From Minisyncoccota bacterium (GTDB lineage Bacteria > Patescibacteriota > Minisyncoccia > Phycocordibacterales > PALSA-1337): a DNA stretch of 64,000 nucleotides. The notes below the pieces were generated by a model. The model had not been told where the DNA came from. It ran no database searches and saw nothing but the letters and a program-made list of their open reading frames with translations. Made by a program: the position numbers and the translations under genes. The DNA lies in assembly GCA_041671485.1 (NCBI GenBank), contig JBAZBL010000003.1, positions 25,412 to 89,411 of the forward strand, read 5' to 3'. Below are positions 4,182-64,000 of the stretch, in pieces; position 1 is the stretch's first letter; the number at the start of each line of letters is the position of its first letter.

Positions 4182-5878
4182 AAACCCCAATTCTCTTTAT
4201 AACATTCAATAGACCTGAACAAACTGAACGTGTTTTCGCAGAAATCCGTAAAATACAACCCGAAAAACTTTTCATTGCTGCGGATGGACCTAGAGATAAC
4301 AGGCCTGAAGATGTAGAGAAGTGTGCAAAAACAAGAAAGATAATAGAGAAGGTTGATTGGCCTTGTGATCTGAAAACTTTGTTTCAGGATAAAAACCTTG
4401 GCTGTAAGATCGGAGCAACTACTGCTATTGGTTGGTTTTTTGATCATGTTGAAGAAGGGATAATCCTAGAAGATGATTGCATTCCCGATAAGTCTTTTTT
4501 CCCTTTTTGTGCAGAAATGCTCAACTATTTTAGAAATAAAGAGAAGATTATAATGATTTGCGGATATAATATCAACGAGAAATCAAATATCCCATATTCA
4601 TATACTTTTTCACGATATGGACATCTTTGGGGTTGGGCATCATGGAGACGAGTATGGAAACAGTATGATGTAACAATGAAGATTTGGGAAAGCAAAGAAA
4701 ATCAGAGAAAGATAAAGAAGGCCATGGGTGATCGCCAGCATTGGAATTATCGGCAATGGCTTTACAACGAAACGTATCATGGAAGAAAAGATACTTGGGA
4801 TTATCAATGGGAATCATACCGATTACTTCACAATCAATTATCAATCATTCCTGCAACCAATATGATAGAAAATATTGGTTTTGGAGCTGATGCAACACAT
4901 ACAAAACAAACAAATTCCCATTTGCTAATAAAAAGAAGGGCGATCACTTTTCCGATTGTTCACAATTCAAATATTATTGCTGATGACAATTATGACAAAT
5001 TATTGAGACCACCAAATAAAGCACCTAGCATGTGGATACGAAACATTAAAGAAATGATCAAGACAAATGCCAAAGACATTGTTCCACCACTTCTATACAG
5101 GACAATAAGACAGATACTTTTACGTCAAATAAAATTTAGACCTAGATGGAATACACTACAATACAAATCGATGGAAGGAGTACAAATGTATTTTGACCCA
5201 TCTGGATCGTGGCAAAAAAAGATGCTCGATGGTTCATATGACAAATTCCTCTTCGATAGACTTCGTGATATTGGTGCAAGTAACAAAGTTATCTATGATA
5301 TTGGTGCTCATGTCGGATATCACTCACTGTATTTTGCTCGAATGGTCGGTGAAGGTGGAAAAATCTTTGCCTTCGAACCAAATAATAATAATCTTGATCG
5401 AATAAAATTAAATCTTGACCATAATAAAGATCTGGAAAAAAGAATTAAGATTTTTAACATTGCTATTTCAGATGAGTATGGAAATGCAGAGTTTAATATC
5501 AACAATGATATTGAAAGTGGTAGAAGTTCTGGAAACTTTATTGGTGGGGCTCATCCTTTCTGGAGCCGAGATGTTTACAAGATAAAGGGGTTTATCAAAA
5601 CACGAGTGAAGACAATTCCGATTGACATGTTTAGAGAACATCTCGATATAAATAGTTCTCCAGATATTATCAAACTCGATGTTGAGGGAGCAGAATATCT
5701 AGCACTCAAAGGTGCGAAGAATACCTTGCTATCGAAGAGACCAATAATATTTATAGAAATTCATTCAATGCAGAGTATGTTCGAAGTTATTACATTTCTT
5801 ACATCATTATCATATAGCTCAAGAATTATTCATGTTGAAGATAATGGTGTTTGCTACATAGAAGCACAAAAATTATGA
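4178..5878 (+). CDS. Two-domain protein: N-terminal GT-A-like glycosyltransferase region fused to a C-terminal FkbM-family methyltransferase
   Basis: N-terminus ILFITFNRPEQTERV, typical of a nucleotide-sugar transferase. The C-terminal 230 aa has the FkbM pattern (YDIGAHVGYHSLYFA ... KLDVEGAEYLAL). It overlaps the upstream gene by 4 nt (ATGA). Confidence 0.6.
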   Translation: MKTPILFITFNRPEQTERVFAEIRKIQPEKLFIAADGPRDNRPEDVEKCAKTRKIIEKVDWPCDLKTLFQDKNLGCKIGATTAIGWFFDHVEEGIILEDDCIPDKSFFPFCAEMLNYFRNKEKIIMICGYNINEKSNIPYSYTFSRYGHLWGWASWRRVWKQYDVTMKIWESKENQRKIKKAMGDRQHWNYRQWLYNETYHGRKDTWDYQWESYRLLHNQLSIIPATNMIENIGFGADATHTKQTNSHLLIKRRAITFPIVHNSNIIADDNYDKLLRPPNKAPSMWIRNIKEMIKTNAKDIVPPLLYRTIRQILLRQIKFRPRWNTLQYKSMEGVQMYFDPSGSWQKKMLDGSYDKFLFDRLRDIGASNKVIYDIGAHVGYHSLYFARMVGEGGKIFAFEPNNNNLDRIKLNLDHNKDLEKRIKIFNIAISDEYGNAEFNINNDIESGRSSGNFIGGAHPFWSRDVYKIKGFIKTRVKTIPIDMFREHLDINSSPDIIKLDVEGAEYLALKGAKNTLLSKRPIIFIEIHSMQSMFEVITFLTSLSYSSRIIHVEDNGVCYIEAQKL

Positions 5879-6819
5879 GAACCCATATTGTTACAATATC
5901 TGACAAAAACCACCTAGGTAGGATGATAGCACTACGTCAATCGTTAACAGTTCATGCACCAGATTCACATATTTATTATTTATGTCTTGATGATTTGGGA
6001 TATCAAACTGCAAAGAAATTGAACATACCAGAAACAACTATTCTGAGACCAGAGGATCTAAACGATAAAGAGCTCCTAGCCTCACGTTCAACACGAACAA
6101 ATCCGGAATTTGCGTCAACATGTAAACCTGCTTTCTTATTGTTCACAATGAAGAGTGGCATTGTTAGATCAGATGATTTATTGGTATTTGTTGATCCAGA
6201 TTTTTATTTTTATAAATCAGCACAACCTTTATTCGAGAAAGTCTATAGTTTGGGTTCAATAACTATTACTCCGCATCGCTTTCCGCCCAATCGCGAGAAT
6301 GAACAATGCAAGAAAGGTATATATAATGCTGGAATAATGTTTTTTAAAAATGATGATTCTGCCCTCCAATGTTTGGAAGAATGGAGAAAACAATGTATTG
6401 ATTGGTGTTATCTACGTTACGAAAATGGGAAGATTGGCGACCAAGGATATCTGAGTGATTGGCCACGAAAATACAAAGGCGTTTATGAGCTTAGAGATAA
6501 GGGAGTTAACCTTAGTACTTGGAATATTAATAATTACAAAATAACAAAAAATAAAGATGGAGGGTTCTTTGTTGATAATGAACCTCTTATTTGTTTCCAC
6601 TTTCATGGACTAAAATTGTATTTCGACAGAAAAGGTTGTTTACGAGCATACCCTATCACAATATTTCACAAAGAAATATATCGATTGTGCCTTGAAGAAT
6701 TAGAGAGAGCATACGATAAAATACAAACTATAGATTCTTCATGGCGATTTGGTACATTATCACAACTAAACTTATTCAGAATAATAAAACAGACAGTATC
6801 AAGCTATTTTCCACGCTAG
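5875..6819 (+). CDS. GT-A-fold glycosyltransferase-like protein (DXD motif VDPD)
   Basis: 315 aa; Rossmann-like N-terminus (HIVTISDKNHL), a DXD-like VFVDPDFYFY and a conserved HFHG. 4-nt overlap with the upstream gene. Confidence 0.4.
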   Translation: MRTHIVTISDKNHLGRMIALRQSLTVHAPDSHIYYLCLDDLGYQTAKKLNIPETTILRPEDLNDKELLASRSTRTNPEFASTCKPAFLLFTMKSGIVRSDDLLVFVDPDFYFYKSAQPLFEKVYSLGSITITPHRFPPNRENEQCKKGIYNAGIMFFKNDDSALQCLEEWRKQCIDWCYLRYENGKIGDQGYLSDWPRKYKGVYELRDKGVNLSTWNINNYKITKNKDGGFFVDNEPLICFHFHGLKLYFDRKGCLRAYPITIFHKEIYRLCLEELERAYDKIQTIDSSWRFGTLSQLNLFRIIKQTVSSYFPR

Positions 6820-6916: not shown

Positions 6917-8455
6917 ATGAAAACACTCTTAAACACGCAAACTTCGGTTCTTCTAGATAACACCTCAGGAAAAGTCTGTCTCATCATACCACCCTCTCCA
7001 TTTCTATTGGATGAGCGTGTATTCATGTCACTTGGAATTCTCAAGGTCGCAGCCACTCTGGAACAAGCAGGAGTTGATGTTGATGTACTTGATCTCTCTG
7101 GTATCAAGAATTTTCCAGATGTAATCTCTGATTATGTGAGAACTCGAACAGATACTATCTTGTTCGGAATAACATCTACAACACCTCAATTGCCTGCAAC
7201 AACAATAATTGCTCGCACAATACGTTGTTTACGTCCTTGTGCAAGAATTATAATCGGTGGTCCACATGTAACCCTTGTTAATGCTGCATTCAAAAAGGAA
7301 AGACTCCTCGGGCGAAATGGAAGAGCCACTAGAGCGATGGAACAATTAGAGACTTGTTTCGATGTTCTTGTCGCTGGGGATGGAGAGGAAGCTGTTTTTG
7401 GTGCATTGGATGAAAATCCACCCAAATTGATTGATGCTGATATAGTGGACTCACCTCTATTCCTAGACAATGAGCGTCTGACCGCACTTCCTTTCCCTGC
7501 ACGACATCTCATCGACGAAAAAAGCTATCACTATTCTATAGATAGTGTTCCCGCTTTATCACTTATCGCACAGCTCGGATGTCCATTCGCTTGTGGATTC
7601 TGTGGTGGACGAGAGTCTCCATCCCTTCGGAAAATACGCATGCGAACTTCCGAAAACATTGTTGCGGAAATGATCCACATCTACCAAACAACTGGAAAGA
7701 GAGGATTCATGTTGTATGATGATGAGCTCAATGTTAACAGAAACATGGTTCCTCTCATGAATCTTATTGCAAAGACACAGAGAGATCTAGGAGTTACGTG
7801 GCGATTACGTGGTTTCATAAAATCACAGCTTCTTACAGACGAACAAGCCCAAGCCATGTATGAAGCTGGATTCAGATGGATTCTGGTTGGCTTTGAATCA
7901 GGTTCGTCTGACATTTTAGAGGCTATTAACAAAAGAGCAACACGTGATGAGAATACTCGGTGTATGGAAATCGCGAGACGTCATGGGCTGAAAATAAAGG
8001 CACTGATGTCTATTGGTCATCCAGGAGAAAATATTGCAACTATTGAACAAACCAGGGACTGGCTCATTGAGACAAAACCTGACGACTTCGATATCTCTCT
8101 TATTACATGTTACCCAGGAACACCTTATTACGATCAGGCTATCCCATCCCATGGTAAAGATATGGTTTGGGTATATACCTATCCAAATACAGGTGCCAAA
8201 CTGTATCAATACGCTGTTGATTTTATGGAAACAGCAAACTATTACAAGGGCGATCCTGATGGTGGTTACAAAGCATATGTCTTCACGGACGAACTCTCAT
8301 CTGATGATTTAGTGTTCCAACGTGACCGCTTGGAGAGAGAAGTGCGTTCTATTCTTGGTATTCCATTCAATCCGAGTACAAAAGCAGTTCTTTACGAACA
8401 TTCAATGGGACAATGGGGAAAACTTCCTCACAATATTCTTCGTACCAAAGACTAA
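6917..8455 (+). CDS. B12-binding radical SAM protein (class B radical SAM; possible methyltransferase)
   Basis: N-terminal cobalamin-binding-like Rossmann segment followed by the CxxxCxxC radical SAM cluster motif (GCPFACGFCGG). Confidence 0.75.
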   Translation: MKTLLNTQTSVLLDNTSGKVCLIIPPSPFLLDERVFMSLGILKVAATLEQAGVDVDVLDLSGIKNFPDVISDYVRTRTDTILFGITSTTPQLPATTIIARTIRCLRPCARIIIGGPHVTLVNAAFKKERLLGRNGRATRAMEQLETCFDVLVAGDGEEAVFGALDENPPKLIDADIVDSPLFLDNERLTALPFPARHLIDEKSYHYSIDSVPALSLIAQLGCPFACGFCGGRESPSLRKIRMRTSENIVAEMIHIYQTTGKRGFMLYDDELNVNRNMVPLMNLIAKTQRDLGVTWRLRGFIKSQLLTDEQAQAMYEAGFRWILVGFESGSSDILEAINKRATRDENTRCMEIARRHGLKIKALMSIGHPGENIATIEQTRDWLIETKPDDFDISLITCYPGTPYYDQAIPSHGKDMVWVYTYPNTGAKLYQYAVDFMETANYYKGDPDGGYKAYVFTDELSSDDLVFQRDRLEREVRSILGIPFNPSTKAVLYEHSMGQWGKLPHNILRTKD

Positions 8456-25944: not shown

Positions 25945-26135
25945 TTTTGGATAATTGCAAGCAACATTTGATTTTTAGTTTTGGCAACCTGTTTGAGCGC
26001 AGTATAAATTTCTTGACAAAATACTGCTGTTAGCTGGAATTGCTCGATGTATGACATCGAGCAATTCCGCAAGTATTTTGTCTAGAAATTTAACGGAGCG
26101 AGTCTTGCCAAAACTAAAAATCAAATGTTGCTTGC
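25945..26135. repeat. Family A long nested palindromic repeat, copy 1
   Basis: Perfect 32-bp terminal inverted repeat (ttgcaagcaacatttgatttttagttttggcaa / ttgccaaaactaaaaatcaaatgttgcttgca). Inner perfect 15-bp IR (ggaattgctcgatgt-atg-acatcgagcaattcc). Conserved unpaired motifs tgagcg (left) and ggagcgagt (right). Confidence 0.6.
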
Positions 26136-26139
26136 ACTA

Positions 26140-29608: not shown

Positions 29609-29830
29609 ATTACTAATATTGTAGGCATCTAGGAAATATGAGTTTTCGCAAATCGAGGACTGTCTGAGCGACTAAAAATTGCTTGATAAAATGCGTAGGT
29701 TGCGGGAATTGCTACGATACTGAGGCATTTCTAATGCCGAAGTATCGAGCAATTCAATAGCATTTTATCTAGCAATTTAAGGAGCGAGTTCCGCAGATTT
29801 GCGAAAACTCATATTTCCTAGATGCCTACA
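29609..29830. repeat. Family A long nested palindromic repeat, copy 2
   Basis: Perfect 35-bp terminal IR (tgtaggcatctaggaaatatgagttttcgcaaatc and its reverse complement). Inner IRs aaattgcttgataaaatgc/gcattttatctagcaattt and gaattgctacgatact/agtatcgagcaattc. Shares actgtctgagcg and ggagcgagttccgcag motifs with the other copies. Confidence 0.6.
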
Positions 29831-31753: not shown

Positions 31754-32560
31754 TTATTTGGAAACTATTACTACAAATTCACCGCGGACTTTATCGGAAT
31801 TCAATTCAAAATATTTCACAACTTCATCTACCGAACCACTGACTACTTCTTCGAATATTTTTGTAAGTTCTCTGCATACAGTTATTTTCATCGATTTTTG
31901 AATATCTTCATAGTATGCATGGCAACAGTCTCGTAACGAAGCCGACACCCCCCGACGAGACTTAACAGCGTGGTGCGATGCGTCTCGGAGGGGGGTAGTC
32001 GGCGAAGTTATCGAGATTGTTGCCAATGACTTCAGCGTCTTCAATATCCTATGTGGTGATTCGTAGAAAATCATGGTTCGTTTTGATGCAATAATTTCTT
32101 TTAGCAAAGTCTCTTTCCCCTTCTTATGAGGCAAAAATCCCAAGAAGGTGAAATCATTGTGAGATATTCCTGCAATAGAAAAAGCAGAGATGAGAGCAGA
32201 TGGACCAGGAATAGATTCTATTTTCAATTCATTTTCTTCTATCTCTTTTGCACATTCTTTCCTGATCCTCGCTACAAGCTCCGAACCAGGATCAGATATA
32301 CATGGTGTACCTGCGTCAGAGACAAGAGCAAGATTTTTGCCAGATTTCAAAAGTCCTATTATCTCCTCTACTCGCGAAAGTCTACTATGCATATGATATG
32401 AAAGTGTATGTGTTTTGATCTCATATTTATCGAGAAGTTTGCGTGTGACTCTGGTATCTTCGCACAATATCAAGTCCACATTCTTGAGTACTTCAATAGC
32501 CCGAAGTGTGATATCACCGAGATTGCCAATTGGAGTGCCAACGACAGATAAAGTAGACAT
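31754..32560 (-). CDS. rsmI: 16S rRNA (cytidine1402-2'-O)-methyltransferase RsmI, carrying an in-frame GC-rich palindromic insertion
   Basis: MSTLSVVGTPIGNLGDITLRAIEVLKNVDLILCEDTR ... YESPHRILKTL ... CRELTKIFEE tetrapyrrole-methylase-fold motifs. About 37 extra residues sit between LKSL and KITVCRELTK. Confidence 0.75.
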   Translation of the reverse strand: MSTLSVVGTPIGNLGDITLRAIEVLKNVDLILCEDTRVTRKLLDKYEIKTHTLSYHMHSRLSRVEEIIGLLKSGKNLALVSDAGTPCISDPGSELVARIRKECAKEIEENELKIESIPGPSALISAFSIAGISHNDFTFLGFLPHKKGKETLLKEIIASKRTMIFYESPHRILKTLKSLATISITSPTTPLRDASHHAVKSRRGVSASLRDCCHAYYEDIQKSMKITVCRELTKIFEEVVSGSVDEVVKYFELNSDKVRGEFVVIVSK

Positions 32561-33230: not shown

Positions 33231-34460
33231 ATGTCTGCAAACGAACCAACAAACCGTATCGTTTATGTAACCCGCGACATCGAACGCGCTTTGGGTGTTT
33301 TGCCAAATGATAACTATATGATTGTCTCAAATAAGACTTCATACTCCGAAAAGATATTGAAAAATTTGAATAATACAAACAATTCGATTGGAAACAATAT
33401 TCTTTTAATTGAAAATGCGACCATTCTTGACACTGCAGAACTATTAGAACAGAACAAGGTACGAGATTATATCAATCAGAACGATTCTACAGTTTTGGTT
33501 TTTAAGAATACTTCGCTGATTGAAGATATCGTCAAAAAGAATGGCTGGAATTTACTCAATCCTCCATCCACATTAGCGGAAAAATATGAGAATAAGATCA
33601 CACAAGTCGAATGGCTCGGAGAATTGGCGAAATATTTACCACCACACTCTATTTCACTTGCTAAAAATTTGAAATGGTCCGACCAACCTATTGTCGTCCA
33701 GTGGGCGCACGGACATACAGGAGATGGAACTATTCTTGTAAATTCTCAAAAGGAACTTGATACCATTCAAGCAAAGTTTCCAGAAAGGTTGGCTCGAGCC
33801 ACAACTTTTATCAACGGACCTTCATTTACCGTTAATATGGTAGTGGCACCAAATACTATCTTAATTGGAAATATTAGTTATCAGATAACAGGTCTCCCAC
33901 CATTTACAGATAACCGATTCAGCACGATTGGTAATGATTGGGGGAAAATCGTACCAGCGTTACTCAATAAATCAGAGGTTGAATATATCCATCAAATAGC
34001 GCGAGAAATTGGTGAAAAAATGCACAAGGATGGTTGGAAAGGACTTTTTGGTATTGATATTATCAAAGAAGAAAAGACTGGTAAAATCTTTCTAATAGAG
34101 ATAAATGCTAGACAACCAGCTTCGACGACTTTTGAATCACAGTTGCAATCAAGATACGGAGGTCAGACCTCCGTATTCGAAGCACATTTACTTGCTTTGC
34201 AAGATATACAAATAGAAAGACCCATAATTGAGATCGAGGAGGGCGCGCAGATAATTCAAAGGGTTACAAAAGATATTACAAATATTTCAAAGAGTGTGAT
34301 CGACTCTCTGGAATCATCCGGATACAATGTTATTGCATATTCAAATACAGAGATAAATTCAGATCTTGTCAGGATACATAGTAATAAAGGGATAATCTCT
34401 AAACACAATCAATTTAATGAAGCGGGTGAGAAAATCAGAGCTTGCATTATTGGAAAATAA
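33231..34460 (+). CDS. ATP-grasp domain protein
   Basis: Central ATP-grasp pattern (IVVQWAHGHTGDGTILV ... GLFGIDIIKEEKTGKIFLIEINARQPAS). Confidence 0.6.
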   Translation: MSANEPTNRIVYVTRDIERALGVLPNDNYMIVSNKTSYSEKILKNLNNTNNSIGNNILLIENATILDTAELLEQNKVRDYINQNDSTVLVFKNTSLIEDIVKKNGWNLLNPPSTLAEKYENKITQVEWLGELAKYLPPHSISLAKNLKWSDQPIVVQWAHGHTGDGTILVNSQKELDTIQAKFPERLARATTFINGPSFTVNMVVAPNTILIGNISYQITGLPPFTDNRFSTIGNDWGKIVPALLNKSEVEYIHQIAREIGEKMHKDGWKGLFGIDIIKEEKTGKIFLIEINARQPASTTFESQLQSRYGGQTSVFEAHLLALQDIQIERPIIEIEEGAQIIQRVTKDITNISKSVIDSLESSGYNVIAYSNTEINSDLVRIHSNKGIISKHNQFNEAGEKIRACIIGK

Positions 34461-35295: not shown

Positions 35296-35466
35296 ATCAG
35301 GAAAAGGTTATGTCATTTCGTGAATCGAGTACTGTCCGAGCGTAGTCATTCGACTAGTATTTCCCAAAAGATGAGGCCGTTTATGTCCGAGAGGCCGAGT
35401 CTTTTGTGGAAATACAGGAGAATGACGCAAGCGAGTTACGCAGATTCACGAAATGACATAACCTTT
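35296..35466. repeat. Family A long nested palindromic repeat, copy 3
   Basis: Perfect 29-bp terminal IR (caggaaaaggttatgtcatttcgtgaatc / gattcacgaaatgacataaccttttcctg). Interior shares gtactgtccgagcg and gcaagcgagttacgcagatt motifs with copies 1 and 2. Confidence 0.6.
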
Positions 35467-35529
35467 TCCTGAGACTCATTCAAGGTTCTATAATCGCCAA
35501 AAACAGCTTTTTATGGTATCCTTTTTGTC

Positions 35530-37775: not shown

Positions 37776-39191
37776 ATGGCTTCTCAATCACAAAATCTTC
37801 CAGGCCGAGTCCATATCATCGGTATATGTGGTGTAGCCACAAGCGCACTCGCAATTGCACTTCATAACAAAGGCGTGAAGGTTACTGGTAGTGATAAAGG
37901 ATTCTTCCCTCCTATTTCAACAGAATTAGAAAATAAAGGAATATCATTTTATGCTGGTTGGCATACAGAGAAAATGATAGAGAATGGAAATCCAGACATA
38001 GTCATTGTTGGTGGTAGTGGTACTAGTCCCAACAATCCAGAAACAATAAATGCAAAAGAGTTGGGCATACCAGTTATTTCATTTGCAGAAGCATTGGCAA
38101 AATATATTATAAAGAAAAATTCGATAGTTGTTGTTGGAACATGGGGCAAAACAACTTCATCAGCATTGTTGTCTTTTATTCTTGGAAATACCGAGATAAA
38201 ACCGAGCTATTTCACCGGCGGACTTTCCCTATCACATGATACTGGTCTCATCACTGATTCTGACTGGTCTGTAGTCGAGGGAGATGAATATCAGATTTCT
38301 ATTTCTGATAGAAGACCCAAATTCGATTTATTCTCGCCAACTCATTTATTATTAACATCTGTATCATGGGATCATGCAGATCTGTATCCGACAGAAAAGG
38401 ATTACTTTAATACATTCGAAAAACTTGTAAGACAAATTCCAGATTCTGGGATCGTAGTTGCTTGCATAGACAATGCTGGTGTAAATAAAATTTTGGCCAA
38501 TGCCAAAACAAAAGTAATTACATATGGAGAAAATCCTTCTTCAGATTTCAGATTGCATTCAATAGAACATACAAAGAAAGGATTGAGATTCAAAATTGAT
38601 CAACAAAATACTTCTTATGAAATAGTGTCCCCCATGCTCGGACGATTCAATGCAGAAAATATCACTGGGGCTTTTGCTATGGCAGTATCTATTGATATAG
38701 ATCCAAAAGAAATCATAAAAAGTATTGGTGAATTCAAAGGCATAAAAAGGCGATTTGAAAAGAGATTGGATGGAGATATAACAGTTCTAGACTGTCATGC
38801 ACCAACTCCAGAGAAAGCAAGTTCAGTACTTACAAGTATCCGTGAAGTCTATGATGCCAAAATTATCGCTGTTTATGAACCAAACATTGGTGGCAGACAA
38901 AGGGATTCTATAAAAGCATACAATAATGCTTTCAAAGATGCTGACTCTGTCTTGATTCCACGTCTCACAAAACTAAAAGTTGACCCTACAAATCCGAATA
39001 AACCACTTGAAGGAGAAGAATTGGCTAGCACCATGTCTTATACTCATGCAAATACAAAATACATTGACGATGATGAAATATTGATTCAATCACTCAAATC
39101 ACAATCAGAAAAAGGTGATGTTATCGTATTCTTGGGATCTCATGGTTTCCGTGGGATGATCGAAACTATTGTGAAGATACTAAGTAATTAA
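37776..39191 (+). CDS. murC: UDP-N-acetylmuramate--L-alanine ligase (MurC/Mpl family)
   Basis: HIIGICGVATSALAIALHNKG-VKVTGSD N-terminal MurC signature; VVGTWGKTTSSAL P-loop. Confidence 0.7.
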   Translation: MASQSQNLPGRVHIIGICGVATSALAIALHNKGVKVTGSDKGFFPPISTELENKGISFYAGWHTEKMIENGNPDIVIVGGSGTSPNNPETINAKELGIPVISFAEALAKYIIKKNSIVVVGTWGKTTSSALLSFILGNTEIKPSYFTGGLSLSHDTGLITDSDWSVVEGDEYQISISDRRPKFDLFSPTHLLLTSVSWDHADLYPTEKDYFNTFEKLVRQIPDSGIVVACIDNAGVNKILANAKTKVITYGENPSSDFRLHSIEHTKKGLRFKIDQQNTSYEIVSPMLGRFNAENITGAFAMAVSIDIDPKEIIKSIGEFKGIKRRFEKRLDGDITVLDCHAPTPEKASSVLTSIREVYDAKIIAVYEPNIGGRQRDSIKAYNNAFKDADSVLIPRLTKLKVDPTNPNKPLEGEELASTMSYTHANTKYIDDDEILIQSLKSQSEKGDVIVFLGSHGFRGMIETIVKILSN

Positions 39192-39201
39192 GATCAGTTT
39201 T

Positions 39202-39358
39202 CAAAAAAGCCCAACGAAATATACTCTCGAGCTGACACGCAATGCAATGTGAGCCATGAACAAATTGCCCATATTTGCTGAATCCTTGTAAGCAAATATG
39301 GTTGCAATTTGGAATGGCGACCTTGCGTGGAGGCGAGAGAGATATTTCGTCGGGCTTT
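39202..39358. repeat. Family B structured palindromic repeat, copy A (bidirectional terminator-like)
   Basis: Roughly 155-nt rod: an outer 25-bp stem flanked by T-runs on both strands and an inner long hairpin (cccatatttgct/agcaaatatgg). About 90 percent identical to 57180-57335, with compensatory substitutions in the stems. Confidence 0.6.
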
Positions 39359-39367
39359 TAATATAAA

Positions 39368-39568
39368 TCACTTCCCTTCATCAACAATATCAGTCTTGAT
39401 TTCGCCACTATCGGTAATATCCTTTACAAGAAGTGTCATACCACAATGATCACATTCTATAACCATACCTTGTGCAAGATTTGGATATCTAGACAAATTG
39501 ACAGTGTTTTTGCATTCTGGACAAATTAGCAATGAATTTTCGCTTTTCATATTTTGATGTATTGGCAT
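39368..39568 (-). CDS. Small zinc-ribbon protein, LysW-like
   Basis: CPEC...(24)...CDHC double CxxC plus an acidic C-terminal tail (DIVDEGK), as in LysW/ArgW carrier proteins. Confidence 0.4.
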   Translation of the reverse strand: MPIHQNMKSENSLLICPECKNTVNLSRYPNLAQGMVIECDHCGMTLLVKDITDSGEIKTDIVDEGK

Positions 39569-53960: not shown

Positions 53961-54992
53961 TTAAAATGACCGCAGATATTCCTCAAGCAATCGGTCATAT
54001 ATTGGTTGCAATATGCACTGATAATTATAGGCATTACCATGCTTTAACATACCCAAATAAGACGAGACTGTTTCGAACTTTGGCTCGTTATTGCATTTAT
54101 TCATCATTCTTCTTCTGGTAGTTGTCCTTAACACCCGATGATCTGGAAAGTGTATCCAGCCCAAAAAGTCAACGCCCGAAGCAAAAGTCTTGAGAAATGT
54201 TTTGTCGGGATGTAATGACAAATGGAGTTTTTCTTTCAAAAATTGGTCCATATCTGTAAGCATAGATAAAAGTAATTTGTGATCAGTGTTAAGGATTACA
54301 AAATCATCGGCATAACGAATATAGTATTTGACTTTGATTTTATGCTTCATGAATTGATCGAATTTATTCATGTAAATATTCGCGAATAATTGAGAAGTTA
54401 AATTTCCTAGTGGCATACCAACATTTGGGTCACCCGAATGAAAACTGTTTATTATTTGATCTAACAGATGAAGAATGTCCCGGTCGGGAATATAGGAATT
54501 GAGTATGTCAAATAATATTTGATGATCTATTGAAGCAAAGAACTTTCTAATATCACATTTCAAAACCCAAACAGTTTTTGTATGATTGCACGATGCTTGT
54601 CTGGCAAACTCGCTAAATTTTTTGAAGGCTCTATGTGTACCTTTGTCGATCCTACAAGAATATGAATCAGAGATGAAAGTTCGGTCAAAGAATGGGTATA
54701 GTTTCCTGTAAAGTGCTCGATGTAAAATTCGATCTCTTACAGTAGCTTTATGGATATTACGAGGTTTGGGATCATTGATTTTGAAGGGCATATATGGACC
54801 ATGTACAAATGTTCTATTTTTCAAATCTTTGTGGAGTTGTAATAGGTGTCTCATTAACTGTAATCGAAATTCAGCTACATCTTCCCTTCTGTCTTTGTCG
54901 GCTGAAAATTCATTCCACGCCTCTAGTAAATTCTCAATGGATATGATAGCTTCGTAGTTATGGCTGAATTGAATTCGTCCCATATTTCTCAT
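53961..54992 (-). CDS. Diversity-generating retroelement (DGR) reverse transcriptase
   Basis: 343 aa; RT motifs including PLGNLTSQLFANIYM (the DGR-type I/LGxxxSQ motif rather than the group II QGxxxSP) and YIRYADDFVIL (YADD). Lies directly downstream of the TR on the same strand. Confidence 0.85.
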   Translation of the reverse strand: MRNMGRIQFSHNYEAIISIENLLEAWNEFSADKDRREDVAEFRLQLMRHLLQLHKDLKNRTFVHGPYMPFKINDPKPRNIHKATVRDRILHRALYRKLYPFFDRTFISDSYSCRIDKGTHRAFKKFSEFARQASCNHTKTVWVLKCDIRKFFASIDHQILFDILNSYIPDRDILHLLDQIINSFHSGDPNVGMPLGNLTSQLFANIYMNKFDQFMKHKIKVKYYIRYADDFVILNTDHKLLLSMLTDMDQFLKEKLHLSLHPDKTFLKTFASGVDFLGWIHFPDHRVLRTTTRRRMMNKCNNEPKFETVSSYLGMLKHGNAYNYQCILQPIYDRLLEEYLRSF

Positions 54993-55017
54993 AATACCCC
55001 CCCCACGGTTTTTACCA

Positions 55018-55404
55018 GTTGTCGAAAAGCTTAAATCAAGCTACAAACTTTGGCATGAATATCACGGACTCGTACCGAAAACACAAAGATATTCGCTTGG
55101 CAATAGAATAGATAATCTCTTAGTAGAAAGCATCGAAGCGACAGTAACTGCGACATTTTTATCAAAAGAAGAGAAATTACCGTGGATACGACTGGCAATT
55201 CGAAAAACCGATACATTGAAAGTTTTACTCATGATTTTATGGGAAACTAAATCAATAGATGATAAAAAATATATTGCTCTTTCTGTGAAATTAGATGAGG
55301 TCGGCAAGATGCTCGGTGGTTGGAGTGGACAGCTTATAAAATCTACCTCTACTAAAACTATAGTGAATAAACAAAACTCTCCAGCAAAAGCAGGAGAGAA
55401 ATGA
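55018..55404 (+). CDS. Avd-like four-helix-bundle protein (accessory variability determinant family) on the opposite strand to the RT; no canonical start codon as sequenced
   Basis: Frame open from 54973 to the TGA at 55402-55404. Translation ...KLKSSYKLWHEYHGLVPKTQRYSLGNRIDNLLVESIEATVTATFLSKEEKLPWIRLAIRKTDTLKVLLMILWETKSIDDKKYIALSVKLDEVGKMLGGWSGQLIK matches the 23S-rRNA-IVS/Avd four-helix-bundle pattern. An ATG at 54960 is one frame off, across a C8 tract. Confidence 0.45.
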   Translation, partial: VVEKLKSSYKLWHEYHGLVPKTQRYSLGNRIDNLLVESIEATVTATFLSKEEKLPWIRLAIRKTDTLKVLLMILWETKSIDDKKYIALSVKLDEVGKMLGGWSGQLIKSTSTKTIVNKQNSPAKAGEK

Positions 55405-55412
55405 AGAGAGTC

Positions 55413-55534
55413 GCCGACACCGCCGCAGGGTTGTTGTCTTTGAAGTCGTTGTCAAGCCAGTTGTAGTTCCAGTCCCACCTGCCGCCGTTCCAGTTGAGGT
55501 AACGAACATAGAGGTTGTCATCGGCGCTGCGGTA
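55413..55534 (-). repeat. DGR template repeat (TR)
   Basis: 122 nt aligning gap-free with 55861-55982. All 17 differences are at TR adenines (sense = - strand). The TR sense strand is rich in AAC codons. Confidence 0.85.
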
Positions 55535-55778
55535 TCGTATGAAGCACCATCCATACCACCACCCCTCGGATACCCTCAGGGCTGAATCGTATTTGGCATC
55601 GTAATGCCTTAGCACCTCATACCAAGTATTTTCATTTTTTAATGAAGTTCTGCATACACCACTCTACCCAAAATCTTGGTCGTGGATATTCTCGATGTAT
55701 GGATACTGGTTTCGGTAGCAAGCAACATTAGTCGCTCACATATTCACCTACTCCCGCCACATCTTACCATATAAATCA

Positions 55779-55802
55779 GCCCCGCGCGTTGTCGCACGGG
55801 GC
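55779..55802 (-). other. GC-rich stem-loop downstream of the VR (candidate DGR homing-enhancing hairpin/cruciform)
   Basis: gccccgcgcg-ttgt-cgcacggggc: 10-bp stem (one C-A mismatch) with a 4-nt loop, about 58 nt beyond the IMH-like end of the VR. Confidence 0.45.
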
Positions 55803-55853
55803 CAAGGTCAAAGGTCACAGGTTCTGAAGAACAAAGTGACTGATGTTCAAGAG

Positions 55854-56474
55854 CTAACTTGCCGACACCGCCGCAGGGTCGAGGCCCCTGAAGTCGTTGT
55901 CAAGCCAGCGGCAGTTCCAGCCCCACCTGCCGCCGCCCCAGCGGAGGCAACGAACATAGAGGTCGTCATCGGCGCCGCGGTAGATGGTCCCCCAGAAGAA
56001 GATGTAGCGGGTGTTTCCGTTTTCATCCTTTTTCCATGCCTCGGGAATGAGGTGCGGGTTCTTCAGGAGATAATCCAAAACATTGGCGTTGAGGACTCGT
56101 TGCTTGGCGAGTTCCTTGCGCAGGTCATTGCCACGGATGGCATTGCCTTTCTTCTGGAGCTTGGACAACCAAAACTCGATTTTCTTGCCATCGAGATAGA
56201 GGTCGTCTCCACGGCATTCGAGCTTGGCAACCTTGCCACTCTGGTGTTCTTCCACCTTCCAGCCGTCAGGAAGGTAGGGGTCGGCACCGAGGTCAATGGC
56301 GTGTTCGATAGGCTTGATTTCATACAAACCCAGTTGGACACCCCTCACACGACCGAGGAAATCCCCGACAGTGAGCGCTTTGACTTCTTCCAGCGATTGG
56401 AAGCCGTTGCGGTTGAGCGCATGCTCGATTTCTTGAGCCAAACCAACACCGAGCGTTAACTTTATATTATCCAT
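55854..56474 (-). CDS. DGR target (variable) protein, 206 aa, with C-terminal VR
   Basis: Intact ORF whose last 40 codons or so are the VR. GC content is far above the genomic background. No obvious signal peptide. Confidence 0.8.
   Translation of the reverse strand: MDNIKLTLGVGLAQEIEHALNRNGFQSLEEVKALTVGDFLGRVRGVQLGLYEIKPIEHAIDLGADPYLPDGWKVEEHQSGKVAKLECRGDDLYLDGKKIEFWLSKLQKKGNAIRGNDLRKELAKQRVLNANVLDYLLKNPHLIPEAWKKDENGNTRYIFFWGTIYRGADDDLYVRCLRWGGGRWGWNCRWLDNDFRGLDPAAVSAS
55861..55982 (-). repeat. DGR variable repeat (VR) at the 3' end of the target gene
   Basis: Cognate of the TR. Encodes YRGADDDLYVRCLRWGGGRWGWNCRWLDNDFRGLDPAAVSA, against TR-encoded YRSADDNLYVRYLNWNGGRWDWNYNWLDNDFKDNNPAAVSA. 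Confidence 0.85.
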
Positions 56475-56784: not shown

Positions 56785-57135
56785 TTATTCTGACGGAACA
56801 GGTACAGGTTCAGTCACAACCACTTTCGGAGCTTCTTTCACCTCTTCCTTTTTGATCGGAGTTTTCCTAGGTAATGCATTCATCTTTTTGCCAGCAATTA
56901 CCTTCTGCGAAACAAGATAATTGTGAATTGTTACAGATGTTTGTGCACCTTTTGATATCCAATACTTGATACGTTCAACATTCAATTGTTCCAATTTATT
57001 CTTGAGTCTAGAATCATACCAACCCAAATTTTCTAGATATTTACCACTCTTTGGTCCATTTTTGGAATCAGTCAAAACCAACCGAAAAGTTGGTTCGTGT
57101 TTCCTACCAGTGCGTTGCAGTCTTATCATCAACAT
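56785..57135 (-). CDS. rpsP: 30S ribosomal protein S16 (with short C-terminal extension)
   Basis: MLMIRLQRTGRKHEPTFRLVLTDSKNGPKSGKYLENLGWYD is the canonical S16 N-terminus. Confidence 0.85.
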   Translation of the reverse strand: MLMIRLQRTGRKHEPTFRLVLTDSKNGPKSGKYLENLGWYDSRLKNKLEQLNVERIKYWISKGAQTSVTIHNYLVSQKVIAGKKMNALPRKTPIKKEEVKEAPKVVVTEPVPVPSE

Positions 57136-57179: not shown

Positions 57180-57335
57180 TAAAAAGCTTGGTGAAATATC
57201 TCTCGAGCCAACACGCAATGCGATCTGAGCCATGAACAAATTGCCCGTATTTGCCGAATCCTTGTAGGCAAATACGGTGCAATTTGGAATGGCGACCTTG
57301 CGTGGAGGCGAGGGAGATATTTCACCAAGCTTTTT
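57180..57335. repeat. Family B structured palindromic repeat, copy B (bidirectional terminator-like)
   Basis: Homologous to 39202-39358 with covarying stems (gcttggtgaaatat/atatttcaccaagc versus gcccaacgaaatat/atatttcgtcgggc; ccgtatttgcc/ggcaaatacgg versus cccatatttgct/agcaaatatgg). T-runs on both strands. Confidence 0.6.
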
Positions 57336-58381
57336 TAGAATTCAGTTACCTTATCACGAATATGTACTTCACTTTCGATACGCATTGCTATTTCTGCCAT
57401 TTCCTTCACCGTCTCTATCGGATATTCACCTATAGCAGTCTCTTCGGATAACATCACTGCATCAGCTCCATCTATGATTGCATTTGCAACATCGGATACT
57501 TCTGCCCTAGTCGGAATAGGATTCTTGACCATAGACTCCATCATTTGTGTTGCAACTATTACCGGCTTATTGGATACATTACATTTATATATTATAGTCT
57601 TCTGTATCAATGGTACTTCTTCGGCTGGAACTTCTATAGACAGATCGCCACGAGCCACCATTATGCCATCTGCTTCTTTTATGATTTCATCAATATCTTT
57701 TAGAGCTTCAGGTGTTTCGATCTTGGCAATGATTCTTGAAGTCAAACCTTTGTCTTTCAATATCTGTTTCAAATGAATTATATCTCCAGCATTGCGTACA
57801 AATGAAAGAGCAACTAGATCAACTTTATTCTTTACACCAAATTCAATGTCTCTCATATCTTTCTCTGTAATAGAGTCTAGTGATAGACCTGCGCCAGGAA
57901 TATTCATGCCAACATTATTCTGGACTTTTCCTCCTATTATTACTTTTGTAATTATTTCATTGCCATTTATTTCCATGACTTCCAATTTCCTTGTACCATC
58001 TTGCAATAAAACAATATTTCCAACTTTGATTTCTTTTGGTAGTCCAGAATGATTGATACTAACGACCTCATTTCCTCCTTCAATATCATCAGTAGTCAAG
58101 GTAAAAGTCTGATCTTGTTTCAATTCTACCATTCCACCTTTGAAAGTCCCTACTCTTATCTTTGGACCACAGAGATCTTGCATTATTTTGATTGATTTGC
58201 CGATCTTCTTCTCTACCTCTTTTACGGTATCAAATCTTCTCTCATGAACTTCAAATTTATCGTGCGAGAAGTTGAATCGCGCTATATCCATACCAGCTTG
58301 TATGAGTTTTTCGATCTTATCAGCACTTTCAGTTGCTGGACCAATAGTACATACAATCTTTGTCTTTTTGGCTATATTCAT
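57335..58381 (-). CDS. pyk: Pyruvate kinase (short form lacking the C-terminal regulatory domain)
   Basis: [10 protein letters not shown]..., [16 protein letters not shown] and the [12 protein letters not shown] motifs. Confidence 0.8.
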
Positions 58382-60927: not shown

Positions 60928-60984
60928 TTTCATGTCGATCGAATCTTATTCTTGCACAAAATCTGTATTTTTCAAAGCGAGTAA

Positions 60985-61005
60985 TACGGAGGTCTGACCT
61001 CCGTA
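60985..61005. repeat. 21-bp perfect palindrome tacggaggtc-t-gacctccgta; second copy at 34155-34175 inside the ATP-grasp gene
   Basis: Identical palindrome arms at both sites (centre base a versus t, i.e. reverse-complement orientation). Confidence 0.4.
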
Positions 61006-61068
61006 TGAGAATCAATATGAGAACAGGTCTATTTGCGTGTAAATCATTTAAAGCCTAAAATAAAATCC

Positions 61069-63370: not shown

Positions 63371-64000
63371 TCAAATCTCGAGGAGCACAACACGACAGCT
63401 CGAGTCCCACTCATCGTCGAGCCAACCCGCACCGCGGAGCCACCCAGCCCCATTCCACCCCGCATAAGGCAAATACCAGCTGCCATCCGAGAGGCGAACA
63501 AGAGAGCCGAAGTTGAAGTACCAGTTTCCGTCTTTTAGTTGATCTGGGACTTTGTCAGGGTTTTCTAACATGAATTTCCAGTATTCTATGCCTGGTATTT
63601 TGTATTTGTCGGAGTATTTCTCAATCAAACGGTTGGCAACATCCTGAACTGTACTACAATCTTCAAATTCCTTGGGATCTGGTATGAATATCTTGTCCTT
63701 GAGTGCTTCCCAGTCTAGGCCTTGTGTGTCAGGATTTAGGGTGAATTGACCAAATTTGTCTGGATCTATGTCTGCTTTTCTTTCTGAATAGTCTTCGTCC
63801 TTTGGATTCTTGATTTCTACAGATATTTGAGTGTCTTTGATCTTTTCTTCGTCTACACCCCATATCTTCCATGTTTCCTTGAGGAAAGAGGTAAAAGAGC
63901 CATATATGTGTTCTGCTTGTTCTACTGTGACTTCTTGATTGCCAAGCTTGATCTTTGTACCTTTTAGGGACTCTCTTAGTTTGGTGATGCTTTCAGTTGT
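63371..64000 (-). CDS. Hypothetical acidic protein, partial (N-terminus beyond the window end) with a GC-rich Trp/Gly-rich C-terminus resembling a DGR VR-type segment
   Basis: Open - strand frame from the window edge to the stop at 63371. C-terminus ...SDGSWYLPYAGWNGAGWLRGAGWLDDEWDSSCRVVLLEI. Local GC spike at about 63380-63500. Confidence 0.5.
   Translation of the reverse strand, partial: TTESITKLRESLKGTKIKLGNQEVTVEQAEHIYGSFTSFLKETWKIWGVDEEKIKDTQISVEIKNPKDEDYSERKADIDPDKFGQFTLNPDTQGLDWEALKDKIFIPDPKEFEDCSTVQDVANRLIEKYSDKYKIPGIEYWKFMLENPDKVPDQLKDGNWYFNFGSLVRLSDGSWYLPYAGWNGAGWLRGAGWLDDEWDSSCRVVLLEI

Follow-up and report, generated by a model that had tools for sequence, protein, structure and literature searches.

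The stretch of DNA analysed here (the window; 64 kb of contig JBAZBL010000003.1, positions 25,412 to 89,411) belongs to a metagenome-assembled genome of Candidatus Paceibacterota, within the Patescibacteria or candidate phyla radiation (CPR), has a GC content of 36%, and carries two copies of one imperfect palindrome of ~155 bp, here termed family B. Copy 1 is held by the 176-nt junction between two convergent genes, a murC-like Mur ligase gene on the + strand (stop at 39191) and a lysW-like zinc-ribbon gene on the - strand (stop at 39368). Copy 2 is located between the genes for pyruvate kinase (pyk) and rpsP, both on the - strand; its right end overlaps the pyk stop codon (57335-57337, -), and the element stands 44 nt upstream of the rpsP start at 57135. 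A first-pass annotation of this DNA had assigned both copies to convergent or terminator positions, which is accurate for copy 1 and applies only loosely to copy 2, between co-directional minus-strand genes. Intergenic spacers in the window are typically shorter than 50 nt, and the few large gaps are mostly those with long hairpins.

The two copies reported by that annotation align with 91% mean column identity over ~170 alignment columns, and with 87% identity over 155 nt in BLAST, where the outer stems are included. Conserved 20- and 27-mers of the family occur exactly twice each in the window, against a chance expectation of 0.00-0.01, and a covariance-model scan of the window, part of the check that had been proposed, returned no copy beyond the two, also with filters off. 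The parts of the family are arranged as follows:

39202..39359, + strand: family B copy 1, a complete imperfect palindrome from A-run to T-run (covariance-model score 192.6 bits)
39209..39216, + strand: outer stem of copy 1, left arm GCCCAACG, with A6 before it at 39203-39208
39229..39235, + strand: left-arm motif GA-GCT-GA, opposite the right-arm motif
39236..39329, + strand: sequence-conserved core (alignment columns 35-128)
39280-39290, + strand: apical loop of 11 nt, GAATCCTTGTA, within the core
39330..39336, + strand: right-arm motif GA-GGC-GA, opposite the left-arm motif
39348..39355, + strand: outer stem of copy 1, right arm CGTCGGGC, then T4 at 39356-39359
57180..57336, + strand: family B copy 2, a complete imperfect palindrome (covariance-model score 188.2 bits)
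57186-57193 with 57323-57330, + strand: outer stem of copy 2, GCTTGGTG with CACCAAGC, flanked by A5 and T6

Each copy forms a single long hairpin of ~58 pairs over 155 nt. On the + strand the folding energies are -78.6 kcal/mol for copy 1 and -92.3 kcal/mol for copy 2, compared to shuffled-sequence means of -36 and -38 kcal/mol (z -11.7 and -14.5), and on the - strand they are -71.5 and -86.0 kcal/mol, respectively. The hairpin base is an 8-bp outer stem in which 5-7 of the pairs are G-C; it has A5-6 before it and T4-6 after it, such that T4-T6 follows the stem on both strands, as had been noted for the window copies; this holds for copy 1, copy 2 and a third, orthologous copy described below. 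In copy 1 the outer-stem arms (39209-39216 / 39348-39355) are fully paired except for one A.C mismatch. The core comprises the stems CACGCAA/TTGCGTG, GCCAT/ATGGC and CAAATTGC/GCAATTTG, an 11-bp apical stem, and two further GA/GA(A) loops.

Pairing of GA-GCT-GA with GA-GGC-GA yields two tandem G.A/A.G mismatches, 3 bp apart, that are purine-purine in all three copies. The internal loops of family B are nearly all G/A on the + strand, with 5'-GA-3' on both arms at four positions (GA/GA three times, GAA/GA once), and all four motifs stay purine opposite purine in three of three copies. On this strand, purines make up 20 of the 26 internal unpaired bases in copy 1 and 16 of 20 in copy 2. Judged from their sequence, the GA motifs are potential tandem sheared G.A pairs; in a comparison to kink-turns, the four motifs are present as symmetric 2x2 loops or a 3x2 loop, without the canonical 3-nt bulge.

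The small open reading frames (ORFs) within family B are treated as non-coding. Those on the - strand (18-23 aa) differ in start and frame between copies, and an 11-aa + strand ORF survives three changes, but its start codon lies within a stem and it has no ribosome-binding site.

Selection at the locus and insertion as a unit

The closest relative, with 88% MurC identity, carries family B at the orthologous murC/lysW junction. This relative is represented by Logan assemblies of SRR22216446, SRR22216448 and SRR22216451, and its copy was rebuilt from two contigs (L024 and L036) to an incomplete sequence. The contigs of the relative from three samples (L024-L026) all end at the identical base within the left arm, and the contig with lysW and the pyridoxal phosphate (PLP) enzyme, L036, begins inside the right arm. 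Contigs of the same strain as the window break within copy 1 too (L001 ends at window position 39331; L032 and L033 start at 39308). De Bruijn assemblers stop at repeats in this way, and we infer that the 88% relative also carries at least two family B copies. The breaks are in addition a warning that short-read assemblies under-represent elements of this type.

Covariation was assessed in an alignment of the two window copies and the orthologue, with the 58-pair hairpin imposed. Across the three sequences 98.8% of stem cells pair and eight pairs are altered on both sides, values that 0 of 500 shuffles reach, and sliding the partners by 1-3 columns reduces pairing to 34-43%. The compensatory stem changes quoted in the first-pass annotation are real: six pairs differ on both sides between the window copies, four in the outer 8-bp stem and two in the apical stem, and the remaining stem differences are three single changes that lead to G.U or repair a mismatch, the A.C in copy 1 being the sole non-standard pair. 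In the orthologue the second stem has further compensated changes (C-G to T-A at two pairs), and the hairpin gains one pair and has another disrupted (A.G). What had been called direct covariation evidence for a folded structure stands in part. The hairpin is conserved, with stem changes that are overwhelmingly compensatory or wobble-compatible, but covariation in a palindrome is by itself not direct evidence for RNA, because compensatory changes of this pattern are also found in REPINs, which are dispersed hairpin repeats (PMC3116915).

As a neutral reference we used 668 four-fold degenerate sites of six flanking genes, compared between the window and the 88% relative; their identity is 73%, and the differences comprise 96 transitions and 83 transversions. 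In the family B core (alignment columns 35-128), 66 of 68 sites are identical to the orthologue (97%; binomial P 2e-7 against the neutral rate), in agreement with the earlier remark that the interior exceeds what a terminator needs, and across the whole hairpin 114 of 129 sites are identical. Transitions dominate the substitutions within the family, 17:1 between copy 1 and copy 2 and 14:1 between copy 1 and the orthologue. In the outer 8-bp stem, copy 1 and copy 2 differ at 9 of 16 positions and all nine differences are transitions; the two stems are therefore homologous and have moved through wobble intermediates, rather than being unrelated terminators. The core differs at 2 of 68 sites between orthologues and at 6 of 93 between the paralogous copies 1 and 2, which argues for selection at the locus and not for within-genome homogenisation of copies. 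Family B has been maintained by purifying selection at its locus since insertion, and this constraint has two tiers: the outer third, or base, is held for pairing only, through pair-preserving transitions, and the core and the four G/A-only motifs are held for sequence.

The murC/lysW junction of other relatives reveals how the element arrived. The two genes overlap in L029 (69% MurC identity) and are separated by 12 nt in L039 and 16 nt in L043 (68%), and none of these three empty junctions has a hairpin. In L027 (72% MurC identity) the junction is occupied by a different long hairpin, of a family termed A, with 40-nt perfect arms. As the empty junctions lack a prior terminator hairpin, family B must have arrived whole, A-run, GC stem and T-run included; it was inserted as a complete unit at very short gene 3'-end spacers. 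Insertion of a MITE (miniature inverted-repeat transposable element) into the loop of an existing terminator is ruled out by the hairpin-free 12-16-nt junctions of relatives together with the homologous outer stems (9/9 transitions). The junction shows the presence/absence pattern of MITEs: the window and the 88% relative have it filled, L029, L039 and L043 have it empty, and in L027 it is taken by the other family. No target-site duplication is visible and no direct repeat lies beside either copy, the flanks (element ends marked by slashes) reading gttttc/AAAAAAG...CTTTT/aatat for copy 1 and cttat/AAAAAG...CTTTTT/tagaa for copy 2. At the same junction in the tail of a further contig, L038 (71% MurC identity), the 12-mer CGCAAGGTCGCC matches the reverse complement of the family B right arm; the family B covariance model found nothing on this tail with filters off, and the relation is treated as unproven.

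Other hairpin families and neighbouring elements

At least three long-hairpin families are present in this genome. Beside family B, the elements are:

25956-26136, window: family A element, 32-nt arms, 100% complementary
29620-29830, window: family A element, 35-nt arms, 100% complementary
35297-35472, window: family A element, 30-nt arms, 100% complementary
31920-32026, within a gene at 31754-32560 (- strand): in-gene hairpin (C), 107 nt, GC-rich, -74 kcal/mol, z -8.7
L027 1660-1859, outside the window: family A element, 40-nt arms, 100% complementary
L039 1620-1837, outside the window: family A element, 35-nt arms, 94% complementary

Family A hairpins are 176-218 nt long, lie all at, or at most ~10 nt from, a stop codon, and share a conserved asymmetric internal-loop motif (left ..CTGTyyGAGCG.., right ..GGAGCGAGTy.CGCA). 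The arms of the element at 25956 and of that in L027 are homologous and ~66% alike, the whole elements being 76% identical, and each is still perfectly self-complementary; such perfect arms amid divergence suggest DNA-level templating or very strong selection. In L039 a homologous family A element occupies the same gene/mraY junction as in the window. At the site of window 35297-35472, the 88% relative (L024 7655-7740) keeps ~60 nt, consisting of the left-arm motif (GAGGACTGTCTGAACGACT) and then a short hairpin, which looks like a deletion remnant, hence family A copies can be lost. The family B model scores the three family A hairpins of the window at 28-35 bits with filters off, values that may reflect long-hairpin shape alone and are not proof of a common origin of A and B.

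Hairpin C forms an in-frame 32-aa insertion in an RsmI-like (TP_methylase) gene, an insertion that the L029 orthologue (68% identical) lacks. Between the window and the 88% relative hairpin C is 97% identical, compared to 86% for the flanking DNA, and its + strand loops are GAA/GAA and GA/GA. Like family B, the subtypes of family A and hairpin C have such GA/GA and GAA/GAA loops on the + strand, regardless of the direction of the flanking genes.

Further palindromes were detected in the course of the analysis. L027 3043-3172 is a 130-nt hairpin with 41-nt arms (95% complementary) at a convergent junction of PLP enzyme and murD genes that measures 25 nt in the window, and its outermost arm bases provide the TGA stop codons of both genes. 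L039, from a more distant Paceibacterota relative, has doublets that resemble REPINs (inverted pairs of GTCATTCCCGCGAAAGCGGGAAT..) in three gaps between genes, all within 3 kb (5434-5496, 6386-6450 and 8139-8176; also in L041), a palindromic family distinct from those of the window. Within the window, a short perfect hairpin, ATACGGAGGTCwGACCTCCGTAT, occurs in two copies (87% identical), at 34154-34184 inside an ATP-grasp gene and at 60984-61014 beside tRNA-Ser and the recG start.

The window also harbours a diversity-generating retroelement at 53961-56474. It includes a reverse transcriptase gene (53961-54992, -), a fragment with weak likeness to Avd (55216-55404, +) and two repeats, of which the template repeat is at 55413-55534 and the variable repeat, at 55861-55982, forms the 3' end of a target gene of 206 aa (55854-56474, -). 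Nearly all mismatches between the repeats are at template adenines, and the target gene is followed by a GC-rich hairpin (55776-55805). The 88% relative has a reverse transcriptase cassette at another place, between an ATP-grasp gene and a 265-aa gene (L024 3266-6609). An 85-aa ORF at 63371-63628 (-) has a C-terminus (..YAGWNGAGWLRGAGWLDDEWD..) like the variable region of the target protein, and may be a second target or a remnant.

Possible roles of the hairpin

We propose, tentatively and with somewhat less than even confidence, that family B is a lineage-specific dispersed hairpin repeat that was inserted whole and has been kept by selection as a transcript-end hairpin with a putative binding core. 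When transcribed from either flanking gene, the element would zip into one very stable hairpin. The GC-rich base and the U-run would then end or insulate transcripts in both directions and protect their 3' ends, and the conserved core with its tandem G.A/A.G mismatches may serve as a recognition platform for a factor. Such a factor could be a protein of the host that binds or processes RNA, or else the enzyme by which family B was once mobilised. By its sequence the hairpin base looks like a bidirectional intrinsic terminator, but termination alone does not explain the sequence-conserved core. A scan for terminator and promoter consensus (loops of 3-8 nt allowed) reports neither copy as a terminator, and family B lacks the compact hairpin of an intrinsic terminator (stem ~5-20 bp, loop 3-8 nt).

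Several observations weigh against a transcript-end role. The 40 kb scanned show no clear excess of simple terminator-like sites over shuffled sequence, with 11 versus 9.8 shuffled at 20-40 kb and a modest excess, 16 versus 10.8 (sd 3.4), at 40-60 kb. None of the window's five further convergent junctions, all of them short, has one of the long hairpins, so termination is not obviously needed, and the family A hairpins at equivalent positions have no T-runs. Copy 2 would be transcribed only as the - strand, where the purine mismatches turn into pyrimidine mismatches. Moreover, all six long hairpins in the window (three of family A, two of family B, one C) have their purine side on the + strand (chance ~0.03 if independent), whatever the gene direction, an arrangement less expected of a hairpin acting in cis in a transcript than of an element that is specific to one DNA strand or transcribed on its own. 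The covariation support comes from three sequences, one of them incomplete, and the paired changes can have another source as well, as templated correction of quasi-palindromes during DNA repair can also yield them.

The rival explanations account for different parts of these data. Family B as a purely selfish mobile palindrome of MITE, REPIN or RPE-like kind, without host function, with the core as the site of the mobilising enzyme and the gene ends as tolerated insertions, would agree with the dispersed copies, with a junction that holds B, A or nothing among relatives, with several other hairpin families in the genome, one of them in frame in a coding gene like RPEs, with the reduction of family A at 35297 to a remnant in the 88% relative, and with the compensatory changes of the same type in REPINs (PMC3116915). 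We nevertheless regard this as unlikely. A fixed inactive copy should drift neutrally, i.e. by ~27% between the two species, whereas the orthologous core differs by 3%, and since orthologues are more alike than paralogues, concerted evolution is no explanation for the conservation; furthermore, the window ORFs include no transposase, RAYT or HUH gene, the duplication expected of a target site is not visible, and the 64 kb hold 2 copies only. The two constraint tiers, with the core conserved in sequence and the stems in pairing only, would suit a free-standing + strand non-coding RNA gene, that is a protein-binding long hairpin with tandem G.A motifs and the T-run as its own terminator. In both copies folding favours the + strand over the - strand by 6-7 kcal/mol, the G/A-only internal loops are those of the + strand, and both copies have the same orientation despite different directions of the flanking genes. 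However, the A-run begins 11 nt past the murC-like stop codon, leaving no room for a promoter; weak 9/12 matches are found only near copy 1 and no promoter-like site upstream of copy 2, a search inside family B gave none above chance, and Rfam returns no match even at E up to 10. As a palindrome folds alike on both strands, strand choice would be a matter of mismatch chemistry alone, and we consider an RNA gene rather improbable.

The shared strand of the purine-purine mismatches in six of six long hairpins, whatever the transcription direction, would be accommodated at the DNA level by a strand-polar element that forms a single-stranded DNA hairpin in replication, transfer or repair and is read by a DNA enzyme or structural protein. 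Sheared G.A pairs stabilise DNA hairpins as well, and the family A arms, 100% Watson-Crick over 30-40 bp and almost free of G.U in spite of homologous arms that are ~66% alike, look like the product of templating. Yet with DNA parameters both strands fold equally (-47.0 versus -47.1 for copy 1, -55.1 versus -53.2 for copy 2), no candidate enzyme was found in the window, and the common orientation is drawn from six elements within a single 64-kb stretch. Because GC skew tracks gene direction in the window, it does not show the direction of replication, to which hairpin orientation thus cannot be related. We judge a DNA-level role to be distinctly improbable. The possibility that deserves least weight is a TIGR-Tas or box C/D-like guide-RNA unit, a stem-loop whose palindromic stem varies and encloses conserved short motifs. 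TIGR systems are known from CPR bacteria, the stem-loops that make up one type of array have palindromic stems that vary and short, conserved box C/D-like motifs (PMC12045711), and family B has tandem G.A motifs and a CUGA tetramer. These stem-loop arrays are, however, tandem, adjacent to a Tas gene, and have free variable spacers of 8-12 nt flanked by the box C/D motifs (PMC12045711), while the family B copies are separated by 18 kb and surrounded by housekeeping genes, the window ORFs include no Nop-domain or Tas protein, and the stretches between the motifs are base-paired and conserved. Without array, Tas and free spacers, this explanation is effectively refuted for the window.

The preferred transcript-end reading treats family B as such; a broader and rather doubtful proposal is that families A and B together with the in-gene hairpin C form one undescribed Paceibacterota class of long hairpin elements, a functional strand-polar system and neither junk repeats nor plain terminators. 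Its traits may be variable but strictly complementary stems, conserved symmetric mismatch motifs of G/A only, a reading on one DNA strand whatever the gene direction and purifying selection at the loci. If true, this would be a new class of protein-binding RNA, or a single-stranded DNA hairpin signal tied to replication, DNA transfer or a new mobilising enzyme, and if the shared G.A architecture and the strand polarity extended genome-wide, they would define a new element class and provide a handle on its protein partner.

Relation to known repeats and terminators

In the collections named here, family B has no match above chance. In Rfam 15 only tRNA-Ser passes the gathering threshold in the whole window and no family covers family B; with E allowed up to 10, what comes up for family B is chance similarity to miRNA precursor models alone, at 14-15 bits compared to thresholds of 44-65. 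BLAST of family B against phage and plasmid collections gave no match. The 20-mer TGGCGACCTTGCGTGGAGGC has two chance matches among genome contigs (a Nitrososphaera contig and a Pseudomonadota contig), a second 20-mer, conserved in all copies, has one, inside a viral coding region, and an 18-mer gives 20 hits among metagenome contigs, all in GC-rich contigs and of 18-23 nt only, and none among viral contigs; as the orthologue has a C to T change inside the scanned 18-mer, the k-mer scans could have missed relatives. A protein-database search with a spurious 56-aa ORF that overlaps family B yielded no candidate further copies, and the window proteins, used to search for sequence beyond the window, retrieved only same-strain contigs lying within it. 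Among 40 window ORFs scanned there is no Pfam match to transposase, RAYT, HUH, Nop or Tas families, and the Pfam labels that the remaining window genes have in syntenic loci are all of housekeeping kind. No autonomous insertion sequence with the same ends was found, either in the window or across related loci of 143 kb in total. The Rfam and literature searches brought up nothing equivalent to family B for CPR/Patescibacteria.

An integron attC site was considered and rejected. Such sites have RYYYAAC and GTTRRRY core sites at the hairpin base, in a cassette array beside an integrase. Copy 1 has a near match (GCCCAAC/GTCGGGC), copy 2 none (GCTTGGT/ACCAAGC), and the neighbours are housekeeping genes (Mur ligase, pyruvate kinase, rpsP).

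The base of family B resembles bidirectional Rho-independent terminators in its GC-rich stem between A-run and T-run directly after stop codons, but differs from them in that the outer stem closes ~130 nt which are themselves an extended stem, with a sequence-conserved interior. With Neisseria Correia/NEMIS elements, ERIC and pneumococcal RUP/BOX, a comparison is possible at the level of the whole element. These are inverted repeats of 100-160 bp at gene boundaries, co-transcribed and strain-variable in presence, which form long RNA hairpins that influence termination or processing. Unlike such MITEs, family B is without a visible target-site duplication and its partner insertion sequence was not found, and unlike a dead MITE, it has an orthologous copy whose conservation far exceeds that of neutral sites. 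Rickettsia palindromic elements (RPEs) are hairpin repeats in a small AT-rich, host-dependent genome that include in-frame coding insertions. The in-gene hairpin at 31920-32026 is inserted in frame as RPEs are; family B, in contrast, is intergenic only.

To REPINs and REPs, the similarity lies in the dispersed extragenic copies, in a hairpin of ~100 nt or more in single-stranded DNA or mRNA, and in the compensatory changes (eight two-sided pairs here), which are common on both hairpin sides in REPINs (PMC3116915). REPs are thought to terminate transcription or stabilise mRNA 3' ends (PMC3733652). Unlike in REPINs, the family B arms pair with each other and are not two short palindromic REP units, the conserved GTAG or CGTC tags are absent, no RAYT was found in the window, and the element has 2 copies in 64 kb, is longer (155 bp) and brings its own A-run and T-run.

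CPR/Patescibacteria genomes are ~1 Mb in size and tightly packed, and their regulation is poorly understood. In the window a hairpin repeat fills some of the few sizeable intergenic gaps, and it has been inserted, yet is conserved well beyond synonymous sites between species; together, insertion and strong conservation point to a domesticated element or to an unrecognised structured RNA or DNA signal. Should the polarity and the G.A architecture not extend genome-wide, the present data would still be the first description of REPIN/MITE-like gene-end hairpin repeats in this phylum. On the features compared, family B does not belong to the REPIN or classical MITE families as such, and it is probably best read as a hairpin-forming intergenic repeat of the general REPIN, MITE and RPE-like kind.

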